Source: a virus
Lineage: Duplodnaviria; Caudoviricetes
Virus record (IMG/VR): IMGVR_UViG_3300028048_000040
Coordinates: 128,001 to 192,000 of that record
Direction: 5' to 3' (one strand)
DNA length: 64,000 nucleotides
The notes beneath the pieces were generated by a model. The model saw only the letters and a program-made list of their open reading frames with translations. It had not been told where the DNA came from and searched no databases. Positions 2-62,798 of the stretch are shown here, one piece after another (the stretch's first letter is position 1; each line of letters opens with the position of its first letter). The position numbers and the translations under genes are program-made.

Positions 2-2197
2 TCTGTATCTAAGAAACTTATGTATGCTGAAGCATCTATCTTAGGTATCAAAATACCAGTAATAGTATTGCTTTCTTATAATATAGGCTTACAGAAAGTA
101 TTATCTCGTCATAATATCAAATATGAATTTACTGAGAAAAGACCATCTAAAGATCAATTCTATATCAAATTCTCTGATGGATATCTAGTATATGAACCTA
201 AATCTGAAGCAGATAATTTATTAGTAAATGGATTAATGCAATTTGATACATCTGAATATTCTATATCTGATATCAATTCTAAAGACATGTGGATTCCAGT
301 ATTAGATGAATTTGGTGGTAGAGTTAAAGCAGATGGTTTAGATAACTTCTATGATCTCTTTATGGATCCAATTACTACAGAAATTTGTAGACTTACTAAT
401 CTACCAACTGATTATGTAGGTGCTATGCTGTATGCTAATGATCTATTGATAGATAATAAGTTCAATCGTCATACTGATATTACTGGTAATAGATTAAGAA
501 CTAATGAGATTATAGTAGGTCACTTATATCTAGTAACTTCTAGAGCATTTGGTGATTATAGAAAGACTATAAAGAAGAATCCTAACTTAGCTCAGTTTAC
601 AGTAAAGAAATCTGCTGTAATCGATTCTATCTTAACTCACGATCAGACCTCTTCTGACTTATCTACATTAACACCACTTCTAGAATCTGAATCTGGTGGT
701 AAAGTAACATTCAAAGGTCTATCAGGTATGAACTCAGAGAGAGCATTCTCTGTAGATAAGAGAACCTATGATAAGTCTATGCTAGGTATAGTAGGTATTT
801 CTACTGGTTTTGCTACAACTGTAGGTGTTAATAGACAGCTTACTATAGATGCCAATATTAGAAATAAGAGAGGATTTGTTGGTAATACAGAAGCAAAGAA
901 TCTAAATAGTACTAATGGTTTCTCTATGTTTGAAGCATTATCTCCAATGGCTATTAATCATGATGACCCATTCCGTACAGCAATGGCATATACACAAACT
1001 GGTCAACACCAAATGACTACTAGAAAATCTATGCCTAACTTGGTAACCACTGGAGCAGATCAAGCTATCGCTTATCTCACTTCTAATAAATTTGCTTATA
1101 AGTTTAGAGGTAATAGAGGAGTAGTCAAAGAGATCAATGATCAATATATGATTATTGAAGATCAAGATACTAAAGAATGTGAATTTGTTGATCTTAGAGA
1201 AACTATTAGAAAGAATTCTGATGGTGGTTTCTATCTTACTACTAAACTTACAGCTACAGAAGGATTGAAGAAAGGATCTAAACTAAAACAAAATGAAATT
1301 GTTGCATATGATAGGAAGAACTATTCTAAGTCTGTTGGTACTACTGGAGATCCTCACGATATTTCTTATAATATTGGAACTCTTGCTAAAGTAGCTATAA
1401 TGAATACAGATATGGCATTCGAAGACTCTTGTGTAGTAGATGAATATGTATCTGATGCATTGACTACAAATCTATGCTATATGAAAGATATCAATCTAAA
1501 TAAACTCTCAAACGTATATAATCTAGTAAAACCTGGAGATAAAGTAGAAGCAGATGATAGCTTATTAGTATTCCAGGATTCATTTGATGAAGAAGAAGCA
1601 AATGAACTATTAAGAAATATCTCTATGGATCAAGAATTCATTTCAGATATTGGTAGAAAACATATCAGATCTAAAACATCTGGTGTAGTACAAGATGTAA
1701 AGATATATAGAACTTGTGAAATATCTGAACTCTCTCCAACATTACAAAAAATATGTAAAGAACATGATGCCAGAATCAATAAACTCAAGAAAGCTATGAG
1801 AGATAATAAGATAGAAAGGGAATATACTCTAGAACCTACTAAGAAATTAGAGCAAACTGGTAAACTAAAAGGTTTAGAAGGTGTAAGAATAGAGATCTAT
1901 GTAAAAGCAGTAGATAAGTTTGGTATCGGTGATAAACTTGTATTCTATCAAGCTTTAAAAGGTGTATGTTCTTATACTATTCCTAAAGAAGTATCTGGAT
2001 ATACGGATTATAGACCTAATGAAAAAGTAGGAGCTTATCTATCTCAGATTGGTACATTCAAACGTATGGTTCCTTCTTGCTATCTATTAGGATTTACTAA
2101 TAAACTATTAGTAGAACTTACTAGACAATGCCAAGAAGAACTGGGAATCAAATGGAGACCAATACAAGAAATAATGGAAGATGAACCAGAAGAATAA
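2..2197 (+). CDS. Phage multisubunit RNA polymerase beta-like subunit (5'-truncated by window; probably the large virion-RNAP beta piece)
   Basis: HDDPFRTAM..Q..Q..P.LVTTG, DMAFEDS, GIGDKL..ALKGV and IGTFKRM match RpoB motifs HDDANRALM, GYNFEDS, GDK..GNKGV and LGVPSRM. The frame is open upstream of nt 20 and the protein stops before the RpoB clamp region (split subunit). Confidence 0.9.
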   Translation, partial: SVSKKLMYAEASILGIKIPVIVLLSYNIGLQKVLSRHNIKYEFTEKRPSKDQFYIKFSDGYLVYEPKSEADNLLVNGLMQFDTSEYSISDINSKDMWIPVLDEFGGRVKADGLDNFYDLFMDPITTEICRLTNLPTDYVGAMLYANDLLIDNKFNRHTDITGNRLRTNEIIVGHLYLVTSRAFGDYRKTIKKNPNLAQFTVKKSAVIDSILTHDQTSSDLSTLTPLLESESGGKVTFKGLSGMNSERAFSVDKRTYDKSMLGIVGISTGFATTVGVNRQLTIDANIRNKRGFVGNTEAKNLNSTNGFSMFEALSPMAINHDDPFRTAMAYTQTGQHQMTTRKSMPNLVTTGADQAIAYLTSNKFAYKFRGNRGVVKEINDQYMIIEDQDTKECEFVDLRETIRKNSDGGFYLTTKLTATEGLKKGSKLKQNEIVAYDRKNYSKSVGTTGDPHDISYNIGTLAKVAIMNTDMAFEDSCVVDEYVSDALTTNLCYMKDINLNKLSNVYNLVKPGDKVEADDSLLVFQDSFDEEEANELLRNISMDQEFISDIGRKHIRSKTSGVVQDVKIYRTCEISELSPTLQKICKEHDARINKLKKAMRDNKIEREYTLEPTKKLEQTGKLKGLEGVRIEIYVKAVDKFGIGDKLVFYQALKGVCSYTIPKEVSGYTDYRPNEKVGAYLSQIGTFKRMVPSCYLLGFTNKLLVELTRQCQEELGIKWRPIQEIMEDEPEE

Positions 2198-2607: not shown

Positions 2608-3486
2608 TTAATTTTCTAATTCAAGAATCCCACCTTGTTTTCTATGAATAGTTCCTTTCTCAGTTTCTATAGTAAACTCATCTTGAAGAGTATCCATTAT
2701 ATTAATTTGAGTGAGATATGCAGGTAATGTATGCATTTGAATCTTATCTACTAAATCTCTTAGTTCTATAGATTCTCCATTATAAGTGCAAGATTTTACT
2801 TCTTCTAATCCATTATCTTTCATAAACTTTTCTACTATATCAAATTCAGTTCTAAGTTTGCCCATCTCTTCTTCTCTTACTGTTAATATATCTCTAACCA
2901 TTATATCTTCAAATTCCTGTTTATGGTCATCTATATTTTTTACCATAAGTTTAGTAAGAGATTGAGATAATATTAAAGCTTGAACTTTTCTTACTTCATC
3001 TTTATCTCTTTTTAATTCTTTTTCTATTTCATCTCTTTTATTCTGATATTCTATATAATTTTCCATTATATCGTCACTTACCTGACGATTTAGAATCTTG
3101 ATCTTCTTATCAGTCATTTTATTGAAATCATGAATAGAATATATCTGACCATCTGCAGTCATGATATAGAATTTTACTTCTATATCATGGTCATACAAAT
3201 TTATTCTCTCATCATCTAGCATATTATATATATCGGCTAAAAAATATCCTCTTACATCAGCTTCTTTAATAGCATCATATGAGCAAAAAGCATTAAATGT
3301 ATAATCTTTTTTATCTTCCCAAGATGGTAAAACTTTAACATGACCATTATTCCAATATTCTATATTTTCATATATAAAGCCTTTAAGTTTTTTAATTATT
3401 CTTGGAGTACCATCACATAAAGAAATAAATACATCATCATCTAGCATTTCCGCATCAGTAATAGCGTAAATATGAATCTTGAGCAT
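2608..3486 (-). CDS. Hypothetical protein, 292 aa, coiled-coil C-half
   Basis: ORF with AGGAGG SD; AACT-N6-TAA motif at 3516-3528. Confidence 0.75.
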   Translation of the reverse strand: MLKIHIYAITDAEMLDDDVFISLCDGTPRIIKKLKGFIYENIEYWNNGHVKVLPSWEDKKDYTFNAFCSYDAIKEADVRGYFLADIYNMLDDERINLYDHDIEVKFYIMTADGQIYSIHDFNKMTDKKIKILNRQVSDDIMENYIEYQNKRDEIEKELKRDKDEVRKVQALILSQSLTKLMVKNIDDHKQEFEDIMVRDILTVREEEMGKLRTEFDIVEKFMKDNGLEEVKSCTYNGESIELRDLVDKIQMHTLPAYLTQINIMDTLQDEFTIETEKGTIHRKQGGILELEN

Positions 3487-24323: not shown

Positions 24324-24388
24324 ATAAAGTAAAATAAAAAATAGATATATACTATTCCTATGAGTATGAGTTGAAGGAGGAATAAGTT

Positions 24389-36279: not shown

Positions 36280-36362
36280 TTCAAGCATATACTATATCAA
36301 TGATAGTTTGGAGAGTAATCTCCAAACTGAAATTTAAATCTTACTGAAAGGGAGAATTTTTT

Positions 36363-44602: not shown

Positions 44603-44633
44603 GTAAACTAAAAAATGGTTATATACTATATCA

Positions 44634-44830
44634 GTGTAGAAACAGGTATTGATTAGTTTATATCGAGTTGTTAAGATGCTTATGTTTATTCTAAACTATT
44701 TCGGTATTTGAGAATACGCCCTAATCAGTACCTGAATCTACTATTAACGACTGTTGTCGTTAGCTGAGGAATATTATTACAGAGAAATAACTATAGGACG
44801 AGTCCCTCTAGGCTCGTCCTATAAGTTATT
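44634..44830 (+). ncRNA. Candidate structured leader / riboswitch-like RNA
   Basis: Early promoter 44603-44636; 19-bp interrupted stem 44636-44656/44721-44741; UUCG hairpin; pseudoknot-or-hairpin alternative; long hairpin 44786-44830. Confidence 0.65.
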
Positions 44831-44864
44831 CAAACATTCAGAATTTTTTAAAAAAGGTGATATA

Positions 44865-45395
44865 ATGAAATTAACTTTTATTGATGTAACTGGCAAACCT
44901 GAACTTGTAGAATGGGTTCAGAATAAGGAAACTGGTGGTAAAGCTGCTATATTCCGTATGTATGCTTTGGAGATGTTGGGTACTCCATTAAAAGCATTAA
45001 TGCCATTAGCAGATACAATGTTGTATCTGAACCCAACGATAGAAGGAGATGAAAACTCCAGGATATTTGATGAAAAGTATGCAAATCAATTATCCAATTT
45101 CCCAGCAACTAAGTTTGATCTGGCAATATTACTAGAACAACTTCAGTTGAAGGACGAGGTATATGTAGTATGCAATTATACTCATCCCACTGTAGGTCCT
45201 ATTGTAGACAGTCTCTCTAAATATATCCAGCAGAAGTATACTTTCCAAGGTATATATCTGGTAAATGATCTTGAGGATATTGATGAATTTGCTGCATCTG
45301 AATTTGATACAGATGAAGGATATGAAGCATTTGTCAAAGATATTGAATGGATGACTAGTCAGAGAGATACGGTGGAAGATGTTCTCAAGAAGTGA
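44865..45395 (+). CDS. Hypothetical protein
   Basis: ORF track 44754..45395; AAGGTGA SD favours ATG 44865. Confidence 0.7.
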   Translation: MKLTFIDVTGKPELVEWVQNKETGGKAAIFRMYALEMLGTPLKALMPLADTMLYLNPTIEGDENSRIFDEKYANQLSNFPATKFDLAILLEQLQLKDEVYVVCNYTHPTVGPIVDSLSKYIQQKYTFQGIYLVNDLEDIDEFAASEFDTDEGYEAFVKDIEWMTSQRDTVEDVLKK

Positions 45396-45400
45396 TATGA

Positions 45401-46177
45401 ATGCTTTATGAGAGAACATTATATGCAGCTCCATATCAATATCTAATCAATAGGAATATACAAGAGTATGATATATCCAAGGCAAATATATCTATTCTGT
45501 TGGATATAGGGTATATTACTCAAAAGGAGTATGATTATCTGCATCAGCTTCCTAAACAACAGCGAGAAGTCAAAGTTGGTTGGAAAATGAGAAGTGATCA
45601 GAATATGATCAAAGCATTAAATTATGGTTTCATTGAAGCAAGGAAAAAATTCTTTGAGCTAAATGAAATCAATGATATGAATGTTTTGTATATTGATAAA
45701 GACTCTATTACATTGATAGATACTAATATCAGGACTACAAAAGTATCTGATCATGTAGAGTTTATTCCTAAGAGTAGATATACTAGCCTATATCAATTAG
45801 GTCAAATACATTTCCTATATCTCAATGATAATGCATATAGATTTAAGTATGCGAATCAAGAGATGCTAGAATCTTACCATTCTGGATTCTTTATAGACTT
45901 TCTATTGTTCATAGCAGAAGAAGCTCAAACTAATTCTGCTAATGAATGTATTGGTTATATAAGAAACTTCTATAACCAATATGTATCTAGAACTTTAGAT
46001 ATAAGATACTATAGAGAATTCAATCAGATGTGTAAGTATAAGATTCTAAATAGTGGTTATTATTTAGCTATTGATGATCCTAGTGCTAGAGAGATAGTGG
46101 ATATATCCTATAACGCTAGAATCATTCAGGATATATACAAATCATTAGCTAATGAGTATTTCAAGAGTGTAAAGTAG
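45401..46177 (+). CDS. Small family-B DNA-polymerase-palm-like protein
   Basis: EYDISKANISIL (motif A-like) and LYIDKDSI (motif C YxDTDS-like). Confidence 0.55.
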   Translation: MLYERTLYAAPYQYLINRNIQEYDISKANISILLDIGYITQKEYDYLHQLPKQQREVKVGWKMRSDQNMIKALNYGFIEARKKFFELNEINDMNVLYIDKDSITLIDTNIRTTKVSDHVEFIPKSRYTSLYQLGQIHFLYLNDNAYRFKYANQEMLESYHSGFFIDFLLFIAEEAQTNSANECIGYIRNFYNQYVSRTLDIRYYREFNQMCKYKILNSGYYLAIDDPSAREIVDISYNARIIQDIYKSLANEYFKSVK

Positions 46178-46558: not shown

Positions 46559-46879
46559 TTGATATCCAAAACTAAAGCGCTTGCTCTATATGAGCAAGTT
46601 GCTAAAGATGAAGCAAATGTAAAGGAGGTGCTGACAATAATAAAATTCCATCCTAGATGTGTCTTATCTATGGAAACATTAGATATGATATGGGATGGAA
46701 TGCTAAAAGCCGCTAATGAATTCTACAGAGCGGTTTTAAATAACCCAAGGGGTGATGATATGGTACCAAAAGCATCACTCGTGCGTTATTATAAGAAGTT
46801 GTTCTTTAATAACGTCGTATACCGAGATATTTACTGTGGAAGCAGTTACATACCAGATCTCTCGGTATACACAATTTAA
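46559..46879 (+). CDS. Hypothetical protein (start uncertain; TTG 46559 proposed)
   Basis: ORF track 46457..46879; TATATTAT at 46523-46530 lies inside the annotated N-terminus. Confidence 0.55.
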   Translation: MISKTKALALYEQVAKDEANVKEVLTIIKFHPRCVLSMETLDMIWDGMLKAANEFYRAVLNNPRGDDMVPKASLVRYYKKLFFNNVVYRDIYCGSSYIPDLSVYTI

Positions 46880-46946
46880 AGAAAGTTCCCTTAGAAAAGT
46901 GCCCTTCGGGGCACTCAGGACTTTTTGTTTAAAAGAGGTTTTAAAT

Positions 46947-47750
46947 ATGAAAGCAGAACAAATGTACAATTTATTGCATGATCAAACCAAATCTCAAACT
47001 AGCTTTATAGCTTTAGTAGGATCTCATAATTATAACTTAGCAGATGAGAATTCAGATTATGACTTCAAATTATTTATCTATCCTACATTCTTAGATCTTT
47101 ATAACGGTGCTAAAAAGAATGGCCATGATATAAAGATAAAAGAAAACGACCTTAAAACCACAGATATAAGAAATTTAAAGACTTGTTTTGTAAAGTCTAG
47201 TTTTAATTTCTCTGAGACATTATTCTCTGATGATATTTATATTCCTACTAATGAGAATGAGGAATTAGACAGAGTCAATAGAGAGACTATACATTTTCTT
47301 ATTCATAATAGAGAATCATTGGCTGCATTGAATATAAGATATCTTATTAAAGCAGTACGTGGATGTTTGCATACTAGACTGAATGCTTTTAATAAGAATG
47401 GTAATTACAAAGCAGCGGCAGAAGCATTTAAAGAGAATATCATGTTAGGAAGATATCTTACTAATCTTATAAAGAAAGAAGAAGATCCTTTTCTAAATGC
47501 TATAAAATTTAGCAAATCTGATGCTATGAGAGAACCATATTTTCAAATAAGACAAAAAGCCATAACTGAAAGGAAGATACTCTCTTATATAGATCTTGCC
47601 TCTTCTGATCTTGAAAAGATTATAAAAGATAATGGATTTGAAGAAAGAGAAAAAGATCATGTTATGACTTATGCTTTAGAAACTATGCTAAATAAAGCAG
47701 TTGCTAAACGTATTCAAGTAGAGTTGAATATTAAATACAACAACAAATAA
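46947..47750 (+). CDS. Pol-beta-superfamily nucleotidyltransferase
   Basis: LVGSHNYNLADENSDYD (GS..DxD) motif; GAGGT SD favours ATG 46947. Confidence 0.8.
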   Translation: MKAEQMYNLLHDQTKSQTSFIALVGSHNYNLADENSDYDFKLFIYPTFLDLYNGAKKNGHDIKIKENDLKTTDIRNLKTCFVKSSFNFSETLFSDDIYIPTNENEELDRVNRETIHFLIHNRESLAALNIRYLIKAVRGCLHTRLNAFNKNGNYKAAAEAFKENIMLGRYLTNLIKKEEDPFLNAIKFSKSDAMREPYFQIRQKAITERKILSYIDLASSDLEKIIKDNGFEEREKDHVMTYALETMLNKAVAKRIQVELNIKYNNK

Positions 47751-47753
47751 ATA

Positions 47754-47784
47754 TAGAGTAGTCCATTGCGGACTACTCTTTTTT
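47754..47784. terminator. Terminator between convergent genes
   Basis: agagtagtcc-attgc-ggactactct followed by a T run. Confidence 0.8.
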
Positions 47785-61176: not shown

Positions 61177-61264
61177 ACTTTGATATAAGTATATACTATT
61201 TAAGTGTAGGTGTCTTATGACACCTACACTAATTTGTTTTATGAGATAGAAAGGAAGAGATAAA

Positions 61265-62498: not shown

Positions 62499-62798
62499 AT
62501 GAACAAGAAAGAATTATCTAAGAAGGTTGCTGAGAAAGCCAATGTTACTGCTGCAGTTGCAGGGGAATGCGTTACTGCTACTTTTGATGTTATCAAAGAA
62601 ACAGTAGTAACTGGTGAGAAGGTAGATATTGCTGGTTTTGGTTCTTATGAAGCTAAAACTCGTGAAGCTCGTGTTGGTCGTAATCCATTGACTGGTGAAC
62701 AAATTCAGATTCCGGCATCTGTAGTTCCTTCCTTTAAAGCTTCTAAAACTTTCAAAGATTATTTGAAAGAAAATGGTAAAAATCTGTTAAAGAAATAA
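62499..62798 (+). CDS. hup: HU-family DNA-binding protein
   Basis: MNKKEL, GEKVDIAGFGSY, ARVGRNPLTGE, PSFKASK. Confidence 0.95.
   Translation: MNKKELSKKVAEKANVTAAVAGECVTATFDVIKETVVTGEKVDIAGFGSYEAKTREARVGRNPLTGEQIQIPASVVPSFKASKTFKDYLKENGKNLLKK

Follow-up and report, generated by a model that had tools for sequence, protein, structure and literature searches.

Organisation of the locus

The stretch of DNA analysed here (the window, 64,000 nt) corresponds to bases 128001–192000 of virus record IMGVR_UViG_3300028048_000040, which comprises 342,328 bp with 31.6% G+C. The locus consists of an early-type promoter, a leader of about 229 nt with a long-range helix (P1), a small hairpin (P2) and a long hairpin (P3), a ribosome-binding site (RBS), and the first gene of an operon, specifying a 176-aa protein (Table 1). 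All segments named in the original prediction, which took the leader for a riboswitch-like element, are present where it placed them. The leader as a whole folds at −73.3 kcal/mol, with z = −5.9 against shuffled sequences.

Table 1. Features of the leader region and first gene (window coordinates).
Feature	Position (nt)	Strand	Description
Early-type promoter	44603–44635	+	GTAAAC 44603–44608, AT-rich spacer, ATATACTAT 44621–44629, 6 nt ending in T44635
Predicted start, G+1	44636	+	Seventh base after ATATACTAT; placed by analogy with AR9, phiKZ and phiR1-37
P1a 5′ arm, GUAGA	44636–44640	+	Pairs with 44737–44741; GTAG/CTAC in 6/6 group A sequences
P1b 5′ arm	44643–44656	+	Pairs with 44721–44734; 14 pairs, 96.3% of cells paired, 6 changed on both sides
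Variable P1 interior	44657–44720	+	z = −0.23 alone; 21–69 nt in relatives
P1b 3′ arm (44721–44734), AA loop, P1a 3′ arm (44737–44741)	44721–44741	+	Present as predicted; folds and shows covariation
P2 small hairpin, AACGAC/GUCGUU core	44744–44763	+	−8.4 kcal/mol, z = −4.9; variable
UGAGGAA, Shine-Dalgarno-like	44765–44771	+	No start codon at proper distance; group A only
P3 long hairpin	44786–44830	+	Lower stem 44786–44792/44824–44830, bulged A44823, upper stem 44793–44804/44811–44822
U6 run (44844–44849), A run, RBS AAGGUGA (44854–44860)	44844–44860	+	T5–6, A run and GG in all leaders
First gene, 176 aa	44865–45395	+	ATG 44865 is the true start; in-frame stops 0–8 codons upstream in relatives

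DNA nearly identical to the record was found mostly in bovine gut metagenomes. Two stretches of the record match Rpb2_6, an RNA polymerase beta domain (RNAP beta-like pieces), and gene 2 of the operon shows about 30% identity to AR9 g239 as well as to genes from jumbo phages of Staphylococcus, Listeria and Yersinia. Judged by these sequence matches, the source is therefore an uncultured AR9/phiKZ-like jumbo phage of the cattle gut with a genome of 342 kb. Its strong Shine-Dalgarno (SD) sites and its AR9 and Staphylococcus jumbo-phage relatives only suggest a Firmicute host. No match to the leader region was found among cultured phages (BLASTn), and neither RNase III nor dsRBD domains were found among the phage's own genes.

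The 176-aa protein belongs to no Pfam or PHROG family, gave no match to cultured phages (tBLASTn) and has no sequence similarity to the syntenic guanylate kinase of AR9, g238; 58 distant homologues were detected. Its predicted structure (pLDDT 64) shows no recognisable RNA-binding fold, and Foldseek returned only non-significant matches to NMP kinases (TM ~0.3). The operon gene originally described as PolB-like is a nucleotidyltransferase of the Pol-beta superfamily (PF10127 just under the cut-off, phrog_388), and is not a family-B DNA polymerase; its RlaP match lies below the cut-off. A longer form of the first gene, read from TTG 44754, was considered and rejected, as a start that far upstream exists only in the window and the frame is stopped within 0–8 codons in six relatives. 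The broken frame favours the RNA reading over a translated extension. One-base length differences before the ATG occur in L007, L022 and one RNA-library contig.

Promoter and predicted transcription start

The motif ATATACTAT occurs 61 times in the genome, where about 19 copies would be expected. Under stringent settings 34 promoter copies were recognised, of which 32 have T at position −1 and G at +1; the consensus of all 34 reads GTAAA (−33), TAG (−20), ATATACTAT (−15 to −7), then N4-R-T-G. The early promoter of AR9 has the layout AAATATATATTAT-(6N)-G+1, and the virion polymerases of phiKZ and phiR1-37 likewise start 6 nt past their motif (PMC5312081). This phage, too, has the hallmark of AR9/phiKZ-type promoters, in that an extended AT-rich motif is over-represented and precedes, by six bases, a conserved G at the predicted start. 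The likeness to the AR9 early (virion RNA polymerase) promoter extends to the conservation of this G and to the dozens of copies, but the core is here ATATACTAT, joined by GTAAA at −33 and TAG at −20. By this analogy, the phage's principal early promoter, of the AR9 type, has the form ATATACTAT-N6-G, its early timing being read from the likeness in layout. The predicted position of the leader directly after an early promoter is thus borne out as regards motif and layout, while its early character is drawn by analogy with AR9 only. Because the layout is of the AR9 type, the start of the transcript was placed at G44636, which would be the first base of P1a; a G at the predicted +1 is kept in the leaders of all relatives. 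A late promoter between P3 and the gene was also considered, but the pattern ACW-N6-TAR is present only in the window (44779) and in L025; chance alone would give about as many occurrences, and the pattern is not conserved.

Most of the 31 promoters of this kind that were surveyed have an RBS 6–21 nt downstream. A hairpin of −10 kcal/mol or lower lies directly after 10 of the 31, against 5.7% of random 48-mers, and several of these hairpins begin exactly at +1. The RNAs at genome positions 14886(−) and 89774(−) pair +1 within a closing helix, of 18 contiguous bp enclosing 222 nt in the first and of 16 contiguous bp enclosing 106 nt in the second, and are followed by a terminator or U-run. The longest closing helix at 300 random sites was 15 bp, and the 13-bp closing helix of the RNA at 62512(−) lies within this random range. 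Given the long closing helices at +1 in other RNAs, P1 is one of a class of 5′-terminal panhandles. A look-alike of P3, AAUAACUGAUAGGAU-GUAA-AUCCUAUCAGUUAU, heads another early RNA, at genome position 295922(−). The AR9 g237–g238 spacer was considered as an equivalent of the leader and rejected; it is strongly folded, but its hairpins precede a late start site, which is another arrangement. A Y RNA or RNA-repair module was rejected as well, since neither TROVE (Ro) nor RtcB was found in the 342-kb record.

Conservation of the leader in related phages

Contigs of related phages were fetched by way of metagenome homologues of the 176-aa protein. The gene order is kept in these relatives (a gene of ~273 aa, one of ~105 aa, a gap of 180–270 nt, the 176-aa gene and a 260-aa gene), and every such gap contains the same promoter motif. 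P1 and P3 are present in every promoter-bearing relative. When 15 leader sequences were folded independently (minimum free energy), P1 and P3 formed every time, and P2 formed in those leaders that have one. The distant relatives L026–L028 have one terminator-like hairpin only, and no promoter. Rfam returned nothing at gathering score for the window or for 10 loci, with chance-level matches only at E up to 10, in agreement with the original view of the RNA as undescribed. RNA-library contigs are of low depth; one covers nt 44655–44882, and the best RNA run has no contig over nt 44621–45048.

For the covariation counts, the arms of L017, L021 and L025 and all of group B were misplaced by MAFFT, and trimmed segments were realigned; L021 was left out of the counts for P3, and group B out of those for P1. 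P1 is formed by nt 44636–44656 and 44721–44741 (5 + 14 bp with a 2×2 AA/AA loop), and the domain it closes (44636–44741) folds at −30.8 kcal/mol with z = −5.3. In the six group A sequences (alignment A9), its 19 pairs are 93.6% paired and 6 of the 14 P1b pairs show compensatory changes, while controls with slid partners reached at most 46% paired. P1a is swapped in other lineages for ATAG/CTAT, ATAA/TTAT or GAGTA/TACTC. The lineages that cannot be aligned here (L009 group, L015 group, L017, L025, L030) form the same helix in the same place with other arms. The pairing proposed for this stem is therefore well supported, by the fold, by covariation and by its recurrence in relatives. The helix takes in the predicted +1 in 8 of 11 lineages; the predicted P1 of L017, L025 and the L009 group lies further in, its first base being 6–7 nt past +1 (+7 to +8).

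The interior of P1 behaves differently. Compared with the window, the four closest relatives keep only 34–55% identity here, against 58–77% at third codon positions of the gene, so that the interior evolves faster than synonymous sites; it is shortest in group B, at 21 nt. Only GUAUU-UGAG-AAUAC (44704–44717) is common to the four closest relatives, and it shows no covariation in A9. The UUCG-capped hairpin that had been described within the interior (44687–44716) is no better than chance, its energy of −1.7 kcal/mol (z = 0.03) being equalled by 92 of 200 shuffles. The proposed 9-bp pseudoknot fared no better: the complementarity of AGUUGUUAA and UUAACGACU is present in the window, but at least 9 pairs are found in 111 of 300 shuffled interiors, the duplex (−11.9) is weaker than the shuffle mean (−14.7), and the homologues have no conserved counterpart. 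Of the supposed pair of mutually exclusive structures, the hairpin alternative, P2, does fold (Table 1), and the exclusive switch finds no support, as the alternatives are not conserved. P2 becomes GAGC/GCTC in L007 and L022 and GCGTCC/GGATGC in L009, and is absent in L017, L025 and L030. The SD-like UGAGGAA is found in the window, L007, L022, L019, L020 and L021 and is missing from the other lineages. Small leader peptides were considered and rejected; neither the frame nor the sequence of the short ORFs in P1 and after UGAGGAA is kept between relatives, and group B has room for none.

P3 folds at −24.4 kcal/mol with z = −7.9, and in the window alone both strands fold nearly equally well. In alignment A7 (nine distinct sequences), its 18 pairs are 95.6% paired and 6 of them changed on both sides, which bears out the long hairpin of the original prediction. 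Slid partners gave at most 49% paired, and none of 500 shuffles matched the observed share paired or the covariation score; the sets are small and related, and these shuffle counts are not probabilities, though the overall pattern is consistent. Six of the 18 pairs are invariant across groups whose proteins are only about 55% identical. Where cells are unpaired, A7 reads as a one-base 3′ bulge that is kept while its position shifts by one or two places. P3 is 92–98% identical to the window in relatives, against 58–77% at third codon positions; this conservation goes beyond what pairing needs and points to specific recognition. The hairpin is single-copy in the genome, and the upper stems of its counterparts in L030 and L021 are quite different. 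The U tail noted as weak is indeed so. The terminator scan does not call P3, although it does call nt 47755–47779, where T7 comes right after the stem; instead of a U-tract 0–2 nt past the stem, the window has a T6 run 14 nt downstream. A U-tract in the adjacent position is seen in L030 (T6) and in part in L021 (a U-rich run).

The original argument that G-U pairs signal selection at the RNA level also gains ground. The P1 and P3 counts include 18 G-U cells, and no A-C mismatch was seen among the unpaired cells when the aligned rows were read by eye. Summed energies on the + and − strands are −273.8 and −228.8 kcal/mol for P1, and −269.3 and −230.5 kcal/mol for P3, and a covariance model of P3 (R1) scored 66–74 bits on the + strand and 28–38 on the −. 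The G-U cells and the energy asymmetry place both helices on the + strand, and for P3 the R1 scores do so as well. Across about ten lineages of related jumbo phages from the cattle gut, compensatory changes preserve P1 and P3.

P3 lies 35 nt before the start codon. The mean unpaired probability over positions −14 to +3 is 0.46–0.65 in five group A leaders, and the true RBS is predicted by these folds to be mostly open. Two pairings that would cover it were examined and rejected: UACCU of the P1b 3′ arm pairs with the SD in the window and L021 and does not do so in L020, L017 and L025, and a pairing of CAUGCUAUCCCU with the SD is found in the L009 group only.

Comparison with known leaders and small RNAs

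Both 5′ stem-loops and SD-like sequences are established stabilisers of mRNA (Emory 1992, Agaisse and Lereclus 1996, Hambraeus 2002, Hue 1995; listed in PMC3997798). What the stem-loops at the 5′ ends of E. coli ompA and papA, B. subtilis aprE and the T7 phi10 leader would have in common with the present leader, given its predicted start, is a helix right at the 5′ terminus, preceded by few unpaired bases or none, and an accessible RBS downstream; here the arrangement recurs on a third of early transcripts. They have no sequence relation to it; P1, unlike them, is a long-range closing helix (19 bp around 21–69 nt) and is followed by the sequence-constrained P3. The STAB-SD of cryIIIA in B. thuringiensis and the 5′ polypurine stabiliser of the phage SP82 may be likened to UGAGGAA, an SD-like purine motif within the leader that lacks a start codon at the proper distance, in what is probably a Firmicute phage, but UGAGGAA matches the presumed anti-SD by only 4–5 nt and is confined to one subgroup. 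The 5′UTR-derived small RNAs of 201phi2-1 and phiKZ (PMC11512511) come from the same broad phage group, with multisubunit RNA polymerases of its own that are putative in the present phage, and have the same succession of promoter, folded RNA of <250 nt and gene, kept by position. They belong to other genes in phages of Pseudomonas hosts, have no sequence similarity to the leader and differ from it in that no canonical U-tract follows the hairpin here. In the lambda N leader and at the RNase III sites of T7, too, the stretch from an early promoter to the first RBS contains long hairpins that are almost perfect, span about two helical turns and carry a bulge or internal loop; nut-like boxes and a phage-encoded RNase III are lacking here, and the likeness to RNase III substrates is one of predicted helix length. 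Compared with the roughly 20 near-continuous bp of such substrates, P1 has 19 bp with a 2×2 loop and P3 has 17–19 bp with a bulge.

Interpretation of the leader

Tentatively, and at somewhat less than an even chance, we favour the view that the ~229-nt sequence is a cis-acting leader of an early mRNA and controls what becomes of the message, without acting as a sensor of a ligand. P1 would bury the first nucleotide of the RNA in a helix without a 5′ overhang, and the buried end would shield the early transcript from host decay that depends on the 5′ end (of the pyrophosphohydrolase, RNase J1 or RNase E type). P3 would be a second checkpoint, either a barrier to 5′-to-3′ decay or a processing site; UGAGGAA ahead of it may help by binding ribosomes, and the true RBS would stay open. 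P1 probably protects the 5′ end, as known stabilisers do, and P3 is probably a decay barrier, a leaky terminator or a protein site. Some observations sit uneasily with this reading. The transcript start is placed by AR9 analogy, and P1 of L017, L025 and the L009 group starts past +1. Simple protection leaves the 92–98% identity of P3 unexplained, UGAGGAA is missing outside group A, and a 19-bp helix around 21–69 nt exceeds the needs of a stabiliser.

Somewhat unlikely, though a serious contender, is an attenuator or 5′UTR-derived small RNA, in which P3 is a leaky premature terminator that yields a panhandle RNA of ~195 nt (P1-P2-P3), and the operon is expressed by read-through, possibly with a phage antiterminator. 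There is a precedent in the giant phage 201phi2-1, where transcription that terminates early within 5′ UTRs gives rise to 8 of 11 small RNAs, one small RNA being conserved in giant phages (PMC11512511). With its A-rich 5′ arm and U-rich 3′ arm, the lower stem of P3 looks like terminator tracts, two other panhandle RNAs end at a canonical terminator or U-run, L026–L028 have only a terminator hairpin at this place, the P3 equivalent of L030 runs directly into T6, and in L021 a U-rich run comes after a helix around P3. However, the terminator scan passes over P3, the T6 run of the window lies too far from the stem to be adjacent and most lineages have no adjacent U-tract at all; no antiterminator pairing is conserved, and the RNA-library contig 44655–44882 crosses both P3 and the T run, a weak point given its low depth and possible DNA carry-over. 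The sequence constraint on P3 is best accounted for by an operator whose conserved basal half (AAUAAC-U-AUAG with CUAU-A-AGUUAUU and a migrating one-base bulge) would be recognised by an RNA-binding protein or nuclease, encoded by phage or host, which controls how the operon is translated or decays. Its high identity relative to third codon positions, the six pairs that never vary, the bulge that is kept while moving and the P3-like hairpin at the head of the early RNA at 295922(−) all fit such an operator. We consider it quite unlikely nevertheless, as neither RNase III nor a dsRBD was found in the phage, no RNA-binding fold is recognisable in the 176-aa product, and the upper stems of L030 and L021 diverge. 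Still more speculative, and distinctly improbable, is the idea that P3, perhaps with P1, is the recognition site of some phage RNA-binding factor or of a phage RNA polymerase (put- or antitermination-like), and that the leader belongs to a phage-wide class of early panhandles that, in AR9-like jumbo phages infecting gut Firmicutes, programme the switch from early to late.

The reading first proposed, a metabolite riboswitch in which pseudoknot and hairpin exclude each other, is now very improbable. The 9-bp complementarity of the window and the length and structure of the leader spoke for it, as did the leaders of phiKZ, which are typically 31–40 nt (PMC8244752) and make a conserved leader of 229 nt unusual for the group. 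A ligand-binding core should be conserved, but the interior of P1 is variable in length (21–69 nt) and in sequence (34–55% identical, z = −0.23), its UUCG hairpin (z = 0.03) is no better than chance, and Rfam gave no match. Nor is there an expression platform: the arms of P3 have no alternative partner and the RBS is predicted to be mostly open. With no conserved pocket and no conserved alternative pairing that would hide P3 or the RBS, the basis of the riboswitch reading is removed. Nothing suggests a ribozyme. Scarcely credible, finally, are inverted repeats that act in the DNA (where a protein binds or recombination takes place) or a palindrome arisen by chance, and a translated extension from TTG 44754. 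P3 does fold nearly equally on both strands in the window, and the frame is open there from 44754; the 18 G-U cells, the strand bias of R1 and the + strand energies stand against the former, and the stops within 0–8 codons in six relatives and the one-base length differences before the ATG against the latter.

The locus is of a known kind, be it a structured early leader, a 5′ stabiliser or a giant-phage 5′UTR-derived RNA; what is new is this particular RNA family, with a panhandle starting at +1 and a strongly constrained P3. To our knowledge, very little is known of RNA-level control in jumbo phages with their own RNA polymerases, and nothing for rumen ones. The analysis removes a false riboswitch candidate and adds a covariation-backed RNA family that is absent from Rfam. 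It also exposes a genome-wide habit, in that the start of an early transcript often lies within a hairpin, and in several transcripts a long closing helix takes in the first base. Such leaders may find use as portable stabilising elements. Should the helices keep host nucleases off the early messages, or flag these for a factor of the phage, they would be part of the takeover of the cell by these viruses.

Promoter and promoter-proximal RNA structures

The predicted promoter of the leader is phage-wide, with at least 34 sites in the genome that share the consensus GTAAA..TAG..ATATACTAT-N4-R-T-G(+1), and its layout is identical to that of the AR9 early promoter. The exact core, ATATACTAT, occurs 61 times in the genome compared with about 19 expected. 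Genome-wide, a hairpin follows immediately behind 10 of 31 promoters, as against 5.7% of random sites. Two such hairpins within the window are perfect, and one outside it closely resembles P3, the long hairpin of the leader, and scored 22.8 bits (E = 0.15) with the covariance model of P3 (R1). Three further RNAs are predicted to begin with a base that is part of a closing helix. For the RNA at genome 14886(-), which had no match in Rfam, a canonical terminator comes next, and for that at 89774(-) a U-run. The coordinates of these elements, and of other features of the window, are collected in the table.

Promoter copies, promoter-proximal RNA structures and other features of the phage sequence
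Feature	Location	Details
Promoter copy	window 44603-44636	upstream of the leader
Further promoter copies	window, near 24347, 35215, 36287, 39460, 56932, 61191, 63220	
Perfect hairpin AGUUUGGAGA-GUAA-UCUCCAAACU	window ~36302-36328	immediately 3' of another promoter copy
Perfect hairpin GUAGGUGUC-UUAU-GACACCUAC	window ~61206-61231	begins at +1 of another promoter copy
P3 look-alike hairpin AAUAACUGAUAGGAU-GUAA-AUCCUAUCAGUUAU	genome 295922(-), outside window	5' end of another early-type transcript
RNA	genome 14886(-), outside window	predicted first base in 18-bp closing helix around 222 nt
RNA	genome 89774(-), outside window	predicted first base in 16-bp closing helix around 106 nt
RNA	genome 62512(-), outside window	predicted first base in 13-bp closing helix around 299 nt
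Bidirectional intrinsic terminator, AGAGUAGUCC..GGACUACUCU then T7	window 47755-47779	between convergent genes; an example of the canonical terminator form in the phage
RNA polymerase beta-like piece	window 2-2197	Rpb2_6 match at 1466-1990
4513-aa ORF	window 8231-21772	

Genes of the operon and comparison with AR9 and the L009 group

The gene described in the original prediction as PolB-like (window 46752-47750) specifies a nucleotidyltransferase of the Pol-beta superfamily and not a DNA polymerase B, as judged from its match to RlaP (PF10127; 22.1 bits, below the cut-off of 23) and to phrog_388. Gene 2 (window 45401-46177) corresponds to phrog_21037 and shares about 30% identity with AR9 g239, which in AR9 (L037, g237-g239) comes directly after g238, a guanylate kinase of 173 aa. 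The product of the first gene here, which begins at window position 44865 and encodes 176 aa, showed no sequence similarity to g238, and fold comparison returned only NMP-kinase hits, all of them non-significant; a kinase-like protein that has diverged strongly or is inactive is one possible identity for it.

The AR9 g237-g238 spacer (L037:1670-1870) is also strongly folded (z = -7.1). Two of its hairpins are long and perfect, the Shine-Dalgarno site of g238 is paired by a CCUCC segment of the spacer, and a late start site lies within it (supplement of PMC5312081). Only in the L009 group, one lineage of related metagenome leaders, is a segment immediately 3' of the closing helix P1, CAUGCUAUCCCU, complementary to the start codon and its Shine-Dalgarno site, with 11 bp formed in the MFE structure between L009:2886-2897 and 2988-3003. 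This modelled pairing would represent a possible lineage-specific form of translational occlusion.
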